64,000 nucleotides of DNA from a virus, in the IMG/VR virus record IMGVR_UViG_3300046168_000070, positions 64,001-128,000 of that record; one strand, written 5' to 3'. A program made the translations under genes and the position numbers. The stretch's first letter is position 1. Every line of letters begins with the position of its first letter. A model generated the notes under the pieces. It did no database searches. It was not told the origin of the DNA and was given only the letters and a program-made list of their open reading frames with translations. Positions 1,791-41,483 of the stretch are shown in pieces.

Positions 1791-1796
1791 GTGTAA
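1791..1796 (+). promoter_or_regulatory. GTGTAA late promoter motif heading the SpeD-like/ATE operon
   Basis: 8 nt before in-frame GTG 1805. Confidence 0.75.
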
Positions 1797-1804
1797 TATA
1801 TTTT

Positions 1805-2194
1805 GTGGAACATAAACATCTTTTAGTTAATGCTACTTTCGAGCAGACCCCATTTACGAATACAGATTTCACAAATAAATGGCTTTTAAAAATTGTTAAA
1901 TTAATTGACATGGAAGTTTTGCATGAACCTGTCTCGGTGAGATGTGATGAAAAAAATAACGAGGGCGTTAGTGGGTTCTGTTTAATAACAACAAGTCATT
2001 TATCTTTGCATTCTTGGGAGAAAAAAACTCCGAATTTATTACAACTTGATGTCTATAGTTGTAAAGATTTTGACCCTCATTTAATTGAGTATGAAATTAA
2101 AAAATTTCATCCAATATCTCTTGGGTTAAAATTCCTAGATAGAAGAGTACGAAATACTAAAGGATGGTCAATGTTTGATGAAAGCAAGGCATGA
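1805..2194 (+). CDS. pyruvoyl-dependent AdoMetDC (SpeD)-family decarboxylase, divergent paralog
   Basis: GVSGFCLITTSHLSLHSWE...LQLDVYSCKDFD; self-cleavage site reads T-SH instead of E-SH. Confidence 0.85.
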   Translation: MEHKHLLVNATFEQTPFTNTDFTNKWLLKIVKLIDMEVLHEPVSVRCDEKNNEGVSGFCLITTSHLSLHSWEKKTPNLLQLDVYSCKDFDPHLIEYEIKKFHPISLGLKFLDRRVRNTKGWSMFDESKA

Positions 2195-2955
2195 GAATAT
2201 ATTTTAGGCATTACTCAGGAGCAATCACTGAATACGATTATTTATTTTTTGATTGCATGGCAGAAGTTCCGTTAGACGAAGAAGAGCGAGCTTTGCAGGA
2301 AGGATGGTTACCTGATGACTATTTTGCTCCTAAAAATGCAGTAAAATCCCATTGGTATCAAGCTCGACAAACAAGAATTGATTTAAGCAAATTTATTGAT
2401 ACTCGCAGTAGTCGAAAGGCTAGAAAAAAATGCAAAGATATTGTGGTCAAATATACGAAAGCGAATAAAGCAAATATAGAAATTTTAAAAGATATATTTA
2501 ATAAATATTTTGAATACAGAAACTTTAAGCCTTGGAAGCTAGAGCCTCTACTAAGTTTAGAGATTGAGAGAAAACATTTTTTAATTTATTATTTAAATGA
2601 CGAACCTATTGCTTTTACATTTTTGAGAGATGTCGGAGAGAATAGTGTTTTCTCAACGCAGTTTGCGTGGAATTATGAAAATCCAAAATTATATTTAGGC
2701 AAATATGCAAACCTTGCAGAAATAGACTATTGTATTGCAAATAATAAAGATTATATGTATACAGGAGTAGGGTATGAAAAAGCTTGTATATATAAGTCTG
2801 ACTACCAAGGGTTTCAATTTTGGAACGGAGAAGCGTGGTCGAATAACACAGAAGATTATAAATGGTTATGCGAGAGAGATTCTAAAATTGAAAAAACAAA
2901 AGATTTAGATAAAATAAAAAGATACGATGATAAAAATTTTTTTATAAATGATTAA
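2191..2955 (+). CDS. ATE/Bpt-like aminoacyl-tRNA-protein transferase
   Basis: N-part ALQEGW...TRIDLSKF..TRSSRKARKK; C-part PIAFTFL...QFAWNYENPKLYLGKY...EIDYC...YMYTGVGYEKACIYKSDYQGFQFWNGEAW, matching ATE_N/ATE_C patterns; no Cys cluster. Confidence 0.75.
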   Translation: MRIYFRHYSGAITEYDYLFFDCMAEVPLDEEERALQEGWLPDDYFAPKNAVKSHWYQARQTRIDLSKFIDTRSSRKARKKCKDIVVKYTKANKANIEILKDIFNKYFEYRNFKPWKLEPLLSLEIERKHFLIYYLNDEPIAFTFLRDVGENSVFSTQFAWNYENPKLYLGKYANLAEIDYCIANNKDYMYTGVGYEKACIYKSDYQGFQFWNGEAWSNNTEDYKWLCERDSKIEKTKDLDKIKRYDDKNFFIND

Positions 2956-3400
2956 AGATTATATTGATTATATTTCCCTGCAAAGAAAAAAGATTGGCGG
3001 TCATGCGATATGCCCTTTTGCTAAAGCTTTTTTGGATAAAGTGCAAATAATAGAGTCCACAAACTTTTGGATTGACGCTACAGAATGTATGGAAAATGAA
3101 GAGCATCCAATGCTTTACCTTATATATGGAGACAAGGATAAATATAGCACAGAATGGCTTGAAAAATTTTGCCAAATAAATAAAAAGTATTCACGCAGTA
3201 AAGATCTTTGGTTAATATGGGATCATCCTGATCAAATAAATAAAATAAATGGAATTGAGACAAATAATAAAGAATATGCTATTCTGTTAATACAAAAATT
3301 ATCTGAATTAAATAAATATTCTGAAAAATTACATAAAACAAATTATTATGAATTTTGGGATAAGGAATATTATAATAAAATAGTAAAAAGTCGATCATGA
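2948..3400 (+). CDS. DUF1415-like protein
   Basis: ICPFAK motif, WDHP, ILLIQKLSEL...TNYYEFWDKEYY. Confidence 0.55.
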   Translation: MIKDYIDYISLQRKKIGGHAICPFAKAFLDKVQIIESTNFWIDATECMENEEHPMLYLIYGDKDKYSTEWLEKFCQINKKYSRSKDLWLIWDHPDQINKINGIETNNKEYAILLIQKLSELNKYSEKLHKTNYYEFWDKEYYNKIVKSRS

Positions 3401-3795
3401 GCAAGAAAGACTTGCCTGATAATTATGTACCAAATGCTTATGCGTTACCTTATGCAAGCAATCTGTCTGCTCCTGTCATAAAACCCAATCATAGCCTCGG
3501 AGGTTGGAAAGTTGGAGCGGTTCACTCTGCAAATAAGCATTATGAAGAGCGATTTGATAAATTAAAAAAAGAGCTTGAAGATTTGACGGAAGATGTCAAG
3601 TGGAACGAAATAATATTTAATGCAGAAATGAAGATGAAACCTGTCATTGGAAATATATATCATTTATACCAAAAAGATAATGGGAAATATTTTATGAGTT
3701 TATTTGCTCCAAATGAATGCACATGGGGAGATAAACATAAAGGTAGTTTTAAACTTAATTATGACAACAGATGGGATAAAGTAATTTTTTCTTGA
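3397..3795 (+). CDS. DUF2452 family protein
   Basis: LPYASNLSAPVI...KPVIGNIYHLY...SLFAPNE...GSFKLNYDNRW. Confidence 0.7.
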   Translation: MSKKDLPDNYVPNAYALPYASNLSAPVIKPNHSLGGWKVGAVHSANKHYEERFDKLKKELEDLTEDVKWNEIIFNAEMKMKPVIGNIYHLYQKDNGKYFMSLFAPNECTWGDKHKGSFKLNYDNRWDKVIFS

Positions 3796-3827
3796 CTTTT
3801 CTCAAATAATATGATATATTTATACCT

Positions 3828-4232
3828 ATGCACTTAGGCAGTCACGAATTAGTTGAATTTTATAATTGCGATGAAGATATTTTAAAAAATTCTAATTTGA
3901 TAAAAAAAATATTTATTAAATCTGCTAAACTAGGTAATGCAAATATAGTCAATAGTCTATTTCATTCTTTTAGTCCGTATGGAGTCACAGGAGTCTTAGT
4001 GATCGCAGAAAGTCATATGAGTATTCATACATGGCATGAGTTTAATTATTGTGCCGTTGATATATTTTCTTGTTGCGATAAATTAAATAATAAAATTGTT
4101 TTAGACAACTTGAAATACGAACTCTTTAGCGACAAATATACATCAAAATTAATTAACAGAGGGGACAAAAATTTTATCAAGCAAATTGCAAATAATAACT
4201 TGACAAATAAACAAAAATCTGTCAGAATATAA
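3828..4232 (+). CDS. speD: S-adenosylmethionine decarboxylase proenzyme
   Basis: LGSHELVEFYNC...FSPYGVTGVLVIAESHMSIHTWHEFNYCAVDIFSC with canonical ESH; own promoter TTGACT 3792-17-TATATT 3815-7-ATG. Confidence 0.92.
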   Translation: MHLGSHELVEFYNCDEDILKNSNLIKKIFIKSAKLGNANIVNSLFHSFSPYGVTGVLVIAESHMSIHTWHEFNYCAVDIFSCCDKLNNKIVLDNLKYELFSDKYTSKLINRGDKNFIKQIANNNLTNKQKSVRI

Positions 4233-12950: not shown

Positions 12951-13579
12951 ATGAATAATGAAGTGGAATTATTAGGTCACTATGGTAGTGATGAAATTAT
13001 TGCCTGTTCAGCGTGGACAAGCACAAGCAGGAATTTAACTGAAGAAAAAAAACAACGCATTCCCAAGCTTATTAATATGCTTTGGAGTAATGGTCACGAA
13101 ACTCCCTTTGAAAAAGGTGTTGTTCATTTTTTAGTCGATACAGAAATTGCTAGTCATATACATTTACTGAAGCATAGAATTGCTTCGATTAATGCAGAGT
13201 CAGCAAGGTATAAAGAATTAAAAGAGGATAAAATATTTATCCCCGATGATTTCCCAAATAAATGGAAACAAAAATTAATTGATTATAGTGATGAAGGTAA
13301 TAACTTATATCATTCATGCTAGAAGAACTTGAGCCAATCTTAGGCAGGAAAAGAGCGAAAGAGTCTGCTAGATTCTTCAAGACTTACAATTCTCGGATAC
13401 AAGCAGATGTGATGTTCAATATGCGTAGCTTTGCAAATTTTTTAAATCTTAGAAATAGTGAACACGCACAAAAAGAAATTAGAGAAATAGCCTTGACAAT
13501 GTTAGAGTTAGTAACTAATATCGAAGGACAACCATTCAAATATACATTAGAAGCATTCAATGAATCAAGAAAAAAGTGA
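12951..13579 (+). CDS. thyX: flavin-dependent thymidylate synthase ThyX (split by 1-nt deletion near 13320)
   Basis: GHETPFE, LLKHRIASINAESARY, FNMRSFANFLNLRNSEHAQKEIR; the two ORFs join if one T is restored (TGC TTA GAA); span 629 nt. Confidence 0.88.
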
Positions 13580-41464: not shown

Positions 41465-41483
41465 AATATGGTTTACACTACTT

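Follow-up and report, generated by a model that had tools for sequence, protein, structure and literature searches.

A marine phage operon pairing an ATE1-like aminoacyl-tRNA transferase with a probable relative of haem-thiolate oxygenases

To our knowledge, every ATE/Bpt enzyme characterised so far acts on protein N-termini, and such enzymes are known only from cells. What, then, would a bacteriophage do with such an enzyme? The question is raised by a locus from a large marine phage, in which genes for a divergent SpeD-like protein, an ATE-like transferase, a 150-residue Cys-Pro protein (here p150), and a DUF2452 protein form four overlapping plus-strand open reading frames (ORFs) behind a GTGTAA element, within the 64,000-nucleotide stretch of DNA analysed here (the window). 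A preliminary description made from the letters alone proposed a modification pathway that either marks host proteins for degradation by ClpS/ClpAP, or adds an amino acid and then decarboxylates it on protein, envelope, or DNA. Here, we describe the folds and conserved residues of the encoded proteins and their linkage in other phages, and we conclude that the cassette more likely builds a modified arginine- or polyamine-type compound than tags proteins for destruction.

Results

Organization of the operon

The four overlapping ORFs and the single GTGTAA motif of the preliminary description are all present. The SpeD-like gene ends at 2194 and overlaps the start of the ATE-like gene at 2191 (ATGA), which itself ends at 2955, beyond the p150 start at 2948, and p150 ends at 3400, overlapping the DUF2452 start at 3397 (ATGA); as judged from these overlapping stop and start codons, genes 1 to 4 are translationally coupled. 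The real start of the SpeD-like gene is almost certainly the GTG at 1805, and not 1784 or 1791, because its homologues begin M-[ED]-H-K-H, and this places the GTGTAA element (1791..1796, plus strand) 14 nt 5′ of the start codon. Exactly 14 nt is also the commonest GTGTAA-to-start distance genome-wide. Overall, GTGTAA shows no enrichment (29 per strand, versus roughly 66 expected from base composition), and its placement is strongly position-specific, with well over half of the 58 copies lying 8–24 nt 5′ of a long ORF; genes with a start-proximal copy include two tail-fibre genes and one minor tail gene. We regard GTGTAA as a probable late-class promoter or initiation signal, recurrent near gene starts in this phage genome. 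A sigma-70-like site (TTGACT-17-TATATT, with TG; 3792..3820, plus strand) lies ahead of a second SpeD gene, described below, although it counts for little because, in DNA this rich in AT, such sites are no commoner than in shuffled sequence. Searches of 50,697 deposited phage genomes with the region (BLASTN) and with the ATE-like protein (TBLASTN) gave no match.

The last of the four genes (3397..3795, plus strand; 132 aa) matches Pfam DUF2452 (6e-13, 49 bits; cut-off 25), and its ESM Atlas neighbours fall in clusters that are 92–99% DUF2452. It is cleanly deleted, leaving a short remnant, in the 99–100%-identical loci L005 and L006, and it is found at other positions in L010, L011, and L013. 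On this genomic comparison, DUF2452 is an accessory, dispensable operon passenger, and we place it outside the cassette to which it had been assigned.

An ATE1-like aminoacyl-tRNA transferase

The second gene (2191..2955, plus strand; 254 aa) codes for a predicted ATE/Bpt-like aminoacyl-tRNA-dependent transferase. The protein matches Pfam ATE_C (1e-6, 29.8 bits; cut-off 25), the top five entries in a PDB profile search are all ATE1, and Foldseek matches its model to ATE1 at E 7e-9. With VIA, the model aligns with human ATE1 over residues 1–254 (Z 17.1, 228 residues aligned). After ATE1, the structural matches are only to aminoacyl-tRNA-dependent GNATs, namely MprF, FemX, L/F-transferase, and Sba18/Sbb17, the last of which are small-molecule peptide synthases. 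An ATE/Bpt-type fold had been suggested from the sequence, and this is borne out, as the best structural match by both Foldseek and VIA is ATE1 and not an acetyl-CoA GNAT.

The C-terminal IYKSDY segment noted previously is present, and in an HMMER alignment W160, E177, and Y201-K202 correspond to yeast ATE1 W260, E/D277, and Y303-K304. E177, Y201, and K202 are invariant in both the long and short forms of the ATE-like family and W160 is nearly so; the remaining three donor-pocket positions show a mixed pattern, with Ser, Ala, and Met/Leu. The Arg moiety is bound by Glu277 in klAte1, where Tyr303 contacts the tRNA and Lys304 serves as the active-site lysine; the Leu-transferring Bpt has a Gln in place of Glu277 (PMC9351520). 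The donor-pocket residue of the phage protein is acidic, as in ATE1 and unlike in Bpt.

The phage protein thus resembles ATE1 and Bpt in its whole-length fold, its ATE_C signature, its Trp/Glu/Tyr/Lys equivalents, and its Bpt-like size of 254 aa, but it lacks both the Cys4 zinc/Fe-S motif and a detectable ATE_N signature. The missing Cys cluster had also been reported correctly: the N-terminal half contains no CxxC or CC and no conserved Cys, Pfam gives no ATE_N match at E up to 1, and a profile of the N-terminal 100 residues did not find ATE1 in the PDB; nonetheless, the N-terminal fold of the model superposes on ATE1 in VIA. In ATE1, the N-terminal domain recognises the N-terminal residue of the acceptor, and a basic pocket that includes klAte1 Arg80 accommodates acidic N-termini of acceptor proteins (PMC9351520). 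Many members of the phage family are 145-aa forms that consist of the C-terminal GNAT half only, and have no N-terminal domain. A further difference is that the ATE-like gene is paired with p150, an association not known for any ATE or Bpt.

A small Cys-Pro protein related to haem-thiolate enzymes

The third gene (2948..3400, plus strand; 150 aa), which matches phrog_10325 (6e-24), contains the CPFAK motif described earlier, in the context AICPFAK. Among 147 p150 representatives (at 50% identity or less), Cys22 of this motif is the sole invariant column, Pro23 is kept in at least 90%, and D92-H93 is nearly invariant. The p150 of the window has no match in Pfam. However, 60 of the 147 representatives have weak matches to DUF6875 (best 3e-5), which cover the haem-binding region, and 26 have weak matches to DUF1415 (best 3.8e-4), with no other family matched more than twice. 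One neighbouring ESM Atlas cluster is named DUF1415 (TM 0.84). The label 'DUF1415-like' in the preliminary description therefore holds at a remote level, through the 26 weak matches and the Atlas cluster, although none of the matches lies above the Pfam cut-off.

DUF6875 proteins ('cytochrome P422') are hydroxylases whose b-haem is ligated by Cys, and they carry an RxGxVCP motif (bioRxiv 10.64898/2025.12.11.692455). Four strands and several helices make up the p150 model (pLDDT 91), in which the Cys-Pro lies in an N-terminal loop; like P422 and YqcI/YcgG, p150 combines an N-terminal Cys-Pro before a helix with a four-stranded sheet flanked by helices. Foldseek of the model against the PDB gave nothing at E 0.001 or better, and a p150 profile gave chance-level matches only to PDB sequences. 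By VIA, however, p150 aligns with AglA (9ub3_A) with a Z of 7.2, which is in the 'middling' range for VIA (rmsd 3.6, 137 of 150 residues aligned), the next match having a Z of 4.5; we grade this match as moderate because Foldseek alone found nothing. AglA is a guanidine N-hydroxylase of the haem-thiolate type, with a Cys thiolate ligand (PMC12866846). At 150 aa, p150 is shorter than the P422 enzymes (180–300 aa) and AglA (243 aa), and unlike in P422, the described substrate-binding motifs are not recognisable and the scores fall below the Pfam cut-off. The p150 family, with at least 446 IMG/VR loci and 927 representative clusters, is also largely viral, unlike P422 and YqcI/YcgG.

We read p150 as a probable small relative of haem-thiolate oxygenases, an assignment absent from the preliminary description. 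Alternatively, Cys22 may act as a nucleophile or bind a metal, given that D92-H93 is nearly invariant as well. Neither Foldseek nor VIA gave a fold match of the kind that a thioredoxin-like or Cys-His hydrolase reading calls for. No 2Fe-2S (Fer2) ferredoxin was found in the phage genome, so the electrons for p150 would come from the host. Prediction of a complex between the ATE-like protein and p150 scored 0.29, against a mark of 0.32, and we count this neither for nor against their association.

Two SpeD-type decarboxylases

The first gene (1805..2194, plus strand; 129 aa), SpeD-like 1, codes for a divergent SpeD-fold pyruvoyl proenzyme with a TTSH processing site (AdoMet_dc 1.4e-12; phrog_3125). 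A second SpeD gene, absent from the preliminary description, lies 32 nt downstream of the four-gene set (3828..4232, plus strand; 134 aa); it codes for a canonical class 1b AdoMetDC/SpeD with an AESH processing site and matches AdoMet_dc over the full profile length (9.2e-33, 113 bits). This canonical gene is conserved 3′ of p150 in L005–L007, and genes of canonical type are also found 3′ of p150 in the distant loci L029, L062, and L063. The processing Ser and the catalytic His and Cys of class 1b SpeD are S63, H68, and C83 in Thermotoga maritima (PMC10407285). The corresponding S71, H76, and C93 of SpeD-like 1 (in the numbering of a 136-aa listing) are invariant in an alignment with pelagiphage and canonical SpeD proteins, and the triad is kept in both SpeD genes of the locus.

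SpeD-like 1 shares only 22% identity with the canonical protein, and its nearest cultured relatives are pelagiphage SpeD homologues, with 34–40% identity. One of these, HTVC201P AXH71538 (34%), has been shown experimentally to be a pyruvoyl-dependent arginine decarboxylase (PMC9992855). SpeD-like 1 shares with it the class 1b SpeD fold, the triad, and a Thr before the processing Ser, but has Thr, not Glu, two positions before that Ser (TTSH versus ETSH). The gene context also differs, as the pelagiphage homologues sit among replication genes and have no ATE-like or p150 neighbours. By these comparisons, SpeD-like 1 is probably a neofunctionalised amino-acid decarboxylase of the Arg/Orn type.

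Conservation of the ATE-like/p150 pair

In a survey of synteny, the decarboxylase, the transferase, and the CPFA protein were found together in other phage genomes. What is conserved as a core is the ATE-like/p150 pair, and the four genes proposed earlier as a unit do not together make up that core. Of 80 viral loci retrieved with p150 only, 41 have an ATE-like gene directly next to p150 and 47 have one no more than four genes away; conversely, p150 is adjacent in 21 of the 29 loci retrieved with the ATE-like protein only. Across 2013 ORFs, 81 are ATE-like and 110 are p150, and the ATE-like genes occur almost only beside p150. This adjacency survives at 22–38% identity and in three arrangements, with ATE then p150, p150 then ATE, or the two convergent. 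p150 is alone in 28 of 109 loci, including those of cultured cyanomyophages such as Syn1 and S-PM2, and is thus not strictly dependent on the transferase.

The recurrent neighbours of the pair are arginine amidinotransferases, DUF6614, and SpeD homologues. The amidinotransferase family, found in ~27 loci, is homologous to L-arginine amidinotransferase (AGAT, 4e-33, together with HsvA, SxtG, and StrB1), and the SpeD homologues are found beside the pair in two arrangements unrelated to each other. Neither an amidinotransferase, DUF6614, Mom, nor phrog_3704 was found in the present genome by TBLASTN and HMM searches; for phrog_3704, we rejected the PHROG label 'ferredoxin', as the sequence has few cysteines. 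Aragorn identified no tRNA gene in the phage genome, only a tmRNA, so the cassette does not bring a donor tRNA of the phage's own.

Discussion

We propose, with a probability of roughly 0.4, that the locus specifies a phage pathway in which tRNA-dependent aminoacylation and haem oxidation act on a guanidino- or polyamine-type amine, either a small molecule or a short peptide. The ATE-like enzyme would draw an aminoacyl group from a charged tRNA of the host, with Arg-tRNA(Arg) or some other basic aminoacyl-tRNA as the likeliest donor, and form an amide with a primary amine. p150 would then bind haem through Cys22 and oxidise the product using host redox partners, the most likely reaction being N-hydroxylation of a guanidino or amino group. 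SpeD-like 1, as a pyruvoyl decarboxylase of the Arg/Orn type, would supply or trim an amine partner of the agmatine or putrescine type, and the downstream canonical SpeD would provide decarboxylated AdoMet for making polyamines. Elsewhere among the phage lineages, the decarboxylase is replaced by an arginine amidinotransferase and DUF6614. The analysis shows the folds, the conserved residues, and the linkage of the genes, from which the donor amino acid, haem binding, the acceptor, and the sequence of steps are inferred. The suggestion that an amino acid is added and then modified or decarboxylated thus survives in a changed form, with an arginine- or polyamine-type metabolite as the product.

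A precedent for this logic is found in argolaphos biosynthesis in Streptomyces monomycini, where AglC attaches Arg to an amine and AglA, a small haem enzyme of four-stranded sandwich fold with Cys as the haem ligand, N-hydroxylates the guanidine; the AglA substrate AMPn-Arg was prepared with AglC, ArgRS, and tRNA (PMC12866846). The parallel is one of logic, with tRNA-dependent arginylation followed by haem N-hydroxylation. p150 is ~90 residues shorter than AglA and shares 4% identity with it over the aligned residues, and unlike the argolaphos system, the cassette has no phosphonate genes and is in a viral context. We found no described phage system of the same composition in the literature, in agreement with the novelty claimed in the preliminary description. 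That viruses make an N-hydroxyguanidine or an arginyl-polyamine from host Arg-tRNA with a stripped-down ATE-type transferase and a miniature Cys-ligated haem enzyme, and that this is widespread in ocean phages, we view as somewhat unlikely.

The whole-length fold match to ATE1, whose known acceptors are only protein N-termini, and the conservation of the catalytic Tyr-Lys and the tRNA-contacting Trp are also consistent with hijacking of an N-degron pathway, in which the ATE-like protein adds a destabilising residue to host or phage N-termini late in infection and Clp proteases degrade the products. The genome does carry an 817-aa Hsp100/Clp ATPase and the tmRNA, and an initial oxidation of the N-terminal residue might fall to p150, by analogy with the thiol dioxygenases that precede ATE1 in the oxidise-then-arginylate logic of the eukaryotic Arg/N-degron pathway. 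However, ClpS was not found in the phage genome, >40 kb separates the Clp ATPase gene from the cassette, the transferase lacks the ATE_N Cys4 motif, and the many 145-aa relatives have no acceptor-recognising domain. Moreover, the partners that recur in other phages are amidinotransferases and SpeD-type enzymes, which act on free metabolites. The ClpS/ClpAP idea thus gains no support from context, and we consider tagging for degradation improbable.

Slightly less probable again is hypermodification of nucleic acid, in which a tRNA-derived amino acid is placed on a base of phage DNA or RNA, and is then oxidised and/or decarboxylated. Such append-then-sculpt logic is known for thymidine hypermodifications and for Mu Mom, and an amino-acid appendage followed by decarboxylation is reportedly an established route to hypermodified thymidines. 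The transferase by its nature binds nucleic acid, and in one lineage p150 runs in the same direction as a Mom-family gene (Pfam Mom 1.2e-52; L022–L026, L084, and L091) and overlaps its end, with a short ATE_C gene convergent to p150. This link is confined to seven of the 109 loci, all in one group of similar contigs, and the present genome has neither a Mom homologue nor a ThyA-type hydroxymethylase, only ThyX. The substrates of the known p150 relatives are free amino acids or an arginine amide, and no activity on DNA is known for amidinotransferases or SpeD enzymes. A fusion of p150 to a radical-SAM/SPASM protein (P0317), followed by a second SPASM radical-SAM gene, fits base modification and also points to peptide maturation.

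Chemistry on a scaffold peptide would have a residue appended to a short phage peptide or protein, its side chain modified by p150, and the product then released. tRNA-dependent pathways of this type exist in natural products, ATE-type enzymes prefer peptide N-termini, and in several lineages the pair comes with small conserved ORFs. Nevertheless, no candidate scaffold conserved between lineages was found among these loci, the P0317 fusion is a single instance from a 3.4-kb contig, and the decarboxylase would have no role on an N-terminally appended residue because there is no free carboxylate there; we think the chance of such a pathway slim. Slimmer still is that there is no joint pathway and that each gene is an auxiliary metabolic gene in its own right (a pair of polyamine decarboxylases and unrelated passengers sharing a variable region by chance), since although p150 stands alone in many phages, DUF2452 comes and goes, and the cassettes often lie in hyperplastic regions near baseplate genes, the ATE-like/p150 adjacency is kept through deep divergence and rearrangement, the ATE-like genes keep almost exclusively to p150, and the stop and start codons overlap.

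It was not until 2025 that Cys-ligated 'sandwich' haem enzymes were recognised, and here what appears to be a pared-down form is locked to a pared-down ATE, in a pair that is present in many marine phage contigs and travels with arginine- and polyamine-handling enzymes. If p150 does N-oxidise an arginylated amine as a haem enzyme, it may represent a new minimal class of haem-thiolate oxygenase. Should proteins or nucleic acids be tagged instead, the cassette would constitute a new mechanism of viral takeover or anti-restriction. If a metabolite is made, phages would be using the charged-tRNA pool of their hosts for chemistry outside translation, the large 'hypothetical' cluster GC 824 of T4-like cyanophages would gain a function, and this may be the first natural-product-like aminoacyl-tRNA-dependent pathway in viruses.

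Genome setting, operon layout, and the GTGTAA element

The window spans bases 64001-128000 of a virus record (193,844 bp, 34% G+C, with a terminal repeat of 844 bp and a CheckV-estimated completeness of 100%) to which none of the deposited phage genomes is closely related, and no tRNA genes were found in this record using aragorn. A ThyX (Thy1) match at 12969-13519 (G000:C1:76969-77519 in whole-record coordinates) falls in two adjacent pieces in different frames, covering profile positions 2-123 and then 119-187; the split may reflect a frameshift or a sequencing error, or there may be two genes.

The four overlapping plus-strand ORFs of the preliminary description are present, with stop/start overlaps at 2191-2194, 2948-2955, and 3397-3400. 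As its homologues have M-[ED]-H-K-H at their N-termini, gene 1 should start at the GTG at 1805, and with this start the GTGTAA motif at 1791 stands 14 nt ahead of the GTG. There is no excess of GTGTAA (29 per strand, against ~66 predicted from base composition), and its placement is far from random: across the whole genome, most copies lie 8-24 nt ahead of a long ORF, and the commonest spacing is exactly 14 nt. Examples within the window from a genome-wide motif scan, in which GTGTAA is followed by 8 nt and a start codon, are at 287, 1791, 18261, 21312, 40070, 51767, and 56188 on the plus strand, and at 41478, 58650, and 63141 on the minus strand. With 14-nt spacing there is hardly any room for a leader, and these 8-nt spacers show no Shine-Dalgarno sequence; the motif may act as a promoter yielding near-leaderless mRNAs, or as a signal for translation initiation. 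Genes bearing it include those for two tail-fibre proteins, one minor tail protein, and one PhoH-like protein, which makes expression as a late or structural class plausible. A second, canonical SpeD gene (3828-4232, plus strand) begins 32 nt after the four-gene set; a TTGACT-17-TATATT site lies within this gap, but with no enrichment of such sites in this DNA it is weak evidence.

Gene 2 codes for a predicted ATE1-like transferase

Gene 2 (2191-2955, plus strand) codes for a protein scoring above the Pfam ATE_C cut-off, and a profile built from 25 relatives has five ATE1 entries as its top PDB matches. The ATE1 structures from human, yeast, and K. lactis are the best matches to its AlphaFold model (pLDDT 83), and ATE1 is the only whole-chain match (Foldseek E 7e-9; VIA Z 17.1, with 228 residues aligned); the next structural matches are aminoacyl-tRNA-dependent GNATs, namely MprF/aa-PG synthases, FemX, L/F-transferase, and the small-molecule peptide synthases Sba18/Sbb17. 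The proposed ATE/Bpt likeness thus holds, the best match being ATE1 and not an acetyl-CoA GNAT. W160, E177, Y201, and K202 align by HMMER with yeast ATE1 W260, position 277, Y303, and K304, and the last three are invariant even in very divergent gene 2 relatives. Lys304 is the conserved residue of the ATE1 active site, Tyr303 and Trp260 make contact with the tRNA, and the arginine carried by Arg-tRNA is bound by Glu277, whereas the leucine-transferring Bpt has Gln at this position (PMC9351520). Because E177 occupies the arginine-binding position where Bpt has Gln, we infer that the alignment favours a basic aminoacyl-tRNA, such as that for arginine, as the donor.

Tagging of proteins for ClpS/ClpAP degradation in an N-degron pathway, as initially proposed, is a less likely reading. 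In its favour, all ATE/Bpt enzymes characterised to date have proteins as substrates, and the phage genome carries, outside the window, both a tmRNA (G000:C1:29003-29400; tag ANNYMATKTVLKLLA) and, near it, a gene for an 817-aa Hsp100/AAA_2 ATPase (G000:C1:20871-23340) with GTGTAA upstream. However, the genome lacks ClpS, the partner genes are those of metabolite enzymes, and the N-domain that would recognise the acceptor is either degenerate or absent. The zinc/Fe-S cysteines of ATE_N are absent, as the preliminary description had noted of the Cys cluster, no ATE_N sequence signal is detectable with Pfam or with an N-terminal profile against the PDB, and many relatives are ~145 aa and consist of the C-terminal GNAT half alone.

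p150 is a candidate haem-thiolate oxygenase

Gene 3 (2948-3400, plus strand) codes for p150, a member of a large, mostly viral family with 927 representative clusters in an exhaustive profile search and at least 446 loci in IMG/VR by pattern scan; p150 itself has no Pfam match. Among 147 representatives sharing no more than 50% identity, Cys22 is the sole invariant column, and at least 90% of them share Pro23, Ala25, Asp92, His93, Gln116, and a YY..W motif. Weak matches to DUF6875 (60 of the 147) and DUF1415 (26 of the 147) are found among them, with any other family matching two at most, and the ESM Atlas neighbours of p150 are viral clusters labelled in part DUF1415/DUF6875. DUF6875 is 'cytochrome P422', in which a b-haem is ligated by the Cys of RxGxVCP and a four-stranded sheet is sandwiched by helices; these enzymes hydroxylate tryptophan, with ferredoxin and a reductase as partners (bioRxiv 10.64898/2025.12.11.692455).

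The p150 model (pLDDT 91) has four strands with flanking helices. A Foldseek search of the PDB gave no match, and an exhaustive structural scan gave a single outlier, AglA (9ub3_A; Z 7.2, with 137 of 150 residues aligned; next Z 4.5). AglA is a YqcI/YcgG haem enzyme with Cys44 as ligand, which N-hydroxylates the guanidine of AMPn-Arg, itself made with AglC, ArgRS, tRNA, and arginine (PMC12866846). From the invariant Cys22, the weak DUF6875/DUF1415 matches, and the AglA structural match, we predict at somewhat better than even odds that p150 is a miniature haem-thiolate oxygenase, a reading tempered by its small size, sub-threshold sequence signal, and moderate Z.

Genes 1 and 4

Gene 1 (1805-2194, plus strand) codes for a SpeD-fold pyruvoyl proenzyme (AdoMet_dc, 1.4e-12) with a TTSH cleavage context, and retains the Ser, His, and Cys required for self-processing and catalysis (PMC10407285). 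It has 22% identity to the canonical downstream SpeD (AESH context; 113 bits), and 34-40% to pelagiphage SpeD homologues, one of which, HTVC201P AXH71538, is by experiment an arginine decarboxylase without AdoMetDC activity (PMC9992855). Being divergent from canonical SpeD and nearer to these homologues, gene 1 probably codes for a neofunctionalised amino-acid decarboxylase; neofunctionalisation of phage SpeD has been described previously (PMC9992855, PMC10407285).

Gene 4 (3397-3795) codes for a bona fide DUF2452 protein which, judging from related loci, is dispensable to the cassette. Two viral loci, L005 and L006, are 99-100% identical over the neighbouring genes, yet DUF2452 is reduced to a short remnant of both ends (L005:4163-4236 and L006:9204-9277), and in three others (L010, L011, and L013) it is placed elsewhere. 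The deletion is clean and internal, retaining the first codons and last ~30 nt, which suggests that L005 and L006 lost the gene recently, not that the window's phage gained it by insertion.

The ATE-like and p150 genes recur together

The co-occurrence of all four genes holds only in part: in close relatives (ATE-like identity of at least 61%) the order SpeD-like 1, ATE-like, p150 is kept in all, but DUF2452 is deleted or moved in the loci named above. More broadly, a survey seeded with the ATE-like protein gave 29 loci, in 21 of which p150 adjoins the ATE-like gene, and among 80 loci fetched with p150 alone, the ATE-like gene adjoins it in 41 and lies within four genes in 47. The pair is arranged as ATE then p150, p150 then ATE, or convergently. 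p150 also occurs without an ATE-like partner, for instance in cultured cyanomyophages, where it precedes gp25: Syn1 and S-PM2 (annotated T4-like GC 824), and S-SCSM2R. In a related 195-kb phage (L001:7466-8275; L003:3455-4294), genes for an APS-kinase-like P-loop protein and a deoxynucleotide monophosphate kinase come after the cassette, and one for a dCMP deaminase lies upstream.

Recurrent neighbours of the pair are SpeD homologues, in two unrelated arrangements, DUF6614 (~110 aa), phrog_3704, and a 360-446-aa L-arginine amidinotransferase homologue (AGAT 4e-33 in a PDB profile search; also HsvA, SxtG, and StrB1). Beside baseplate genes of T4-like marine phages there is a cassette of p150, short ATE_C (~145 aa), DUF6614, and the amidinotransferase homologue, found in L053 (with two amidinotransferase paralogues in tandem), L030, L110, L066, L022, and ~20 other viral loci. 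The 211-218-aa phrog_3704 family, labelled 'ferredoxin' but cysteine-poor, abuts the ATE-like gene in L016-L021 (e.g., L016:3063-3698), L029:1990-2646, and L031:8248-8892; it could be an alternative partner, since p150 is undetected in L016-L021.

In one lineage (L022-L026, L084, and L091) a Mom-family DNA-modification gene (L022:6512-7297, minus strand; Pfam 1.2e-52) lies directly ahead of p150 and overlaps it, and the short ATE_C gene is convergent. On a 3.4-kb contig (L034:266-1984) the protein P0317 joins a radical-SAM/SPASM region (~1-390) to a p150 domain (400-557), and another radical-SAM/SPASM gene comes next. The Mom-linked lineage and the radical-SAM fusion suggest a role in nucleic-acid modification, but such a role is not supported in the present genome, which has ThyX and neither a ThyA-type enzyme nor Mom; DUF6614, the amidinotransferase, and phrog_3704 are likewise missing from it by tblastn and HMM searches.

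A predicted arginine and polyamine chemistry

Neither ATE-like proteins in phages nor their pairing with p150 came up in literature searches, in agreement with the earlier statement that no characterised phage system of this composition is known; amidinotransferases have been annotated in passing in a cyanophage (PMC12801897). Four features point independently towards arginine/guanidino and polyamine chemistry: the transferase has an acidic residue in its donor pocket, gene 1 is akin to an arginine decarboxylase, an arginine amidinotransferase recurs as neighbour, and p150 has an AglA-like fold, AglA acting directly after an Arg-tRNA-dependent ligase. Because of this convergence, we favour a predicted function in which the ATE-like enzyme would carry out tRNA-dependent aminoacylation of an amine, with haem-dependent oxidation before or after it, and the amine partner would be provided by the decarboxylase or amidinotransferase. 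We speculate that the product may, for instance, be a polycationic compound or an N-hydroxyguanidine, formed as a metabolite in late infection.
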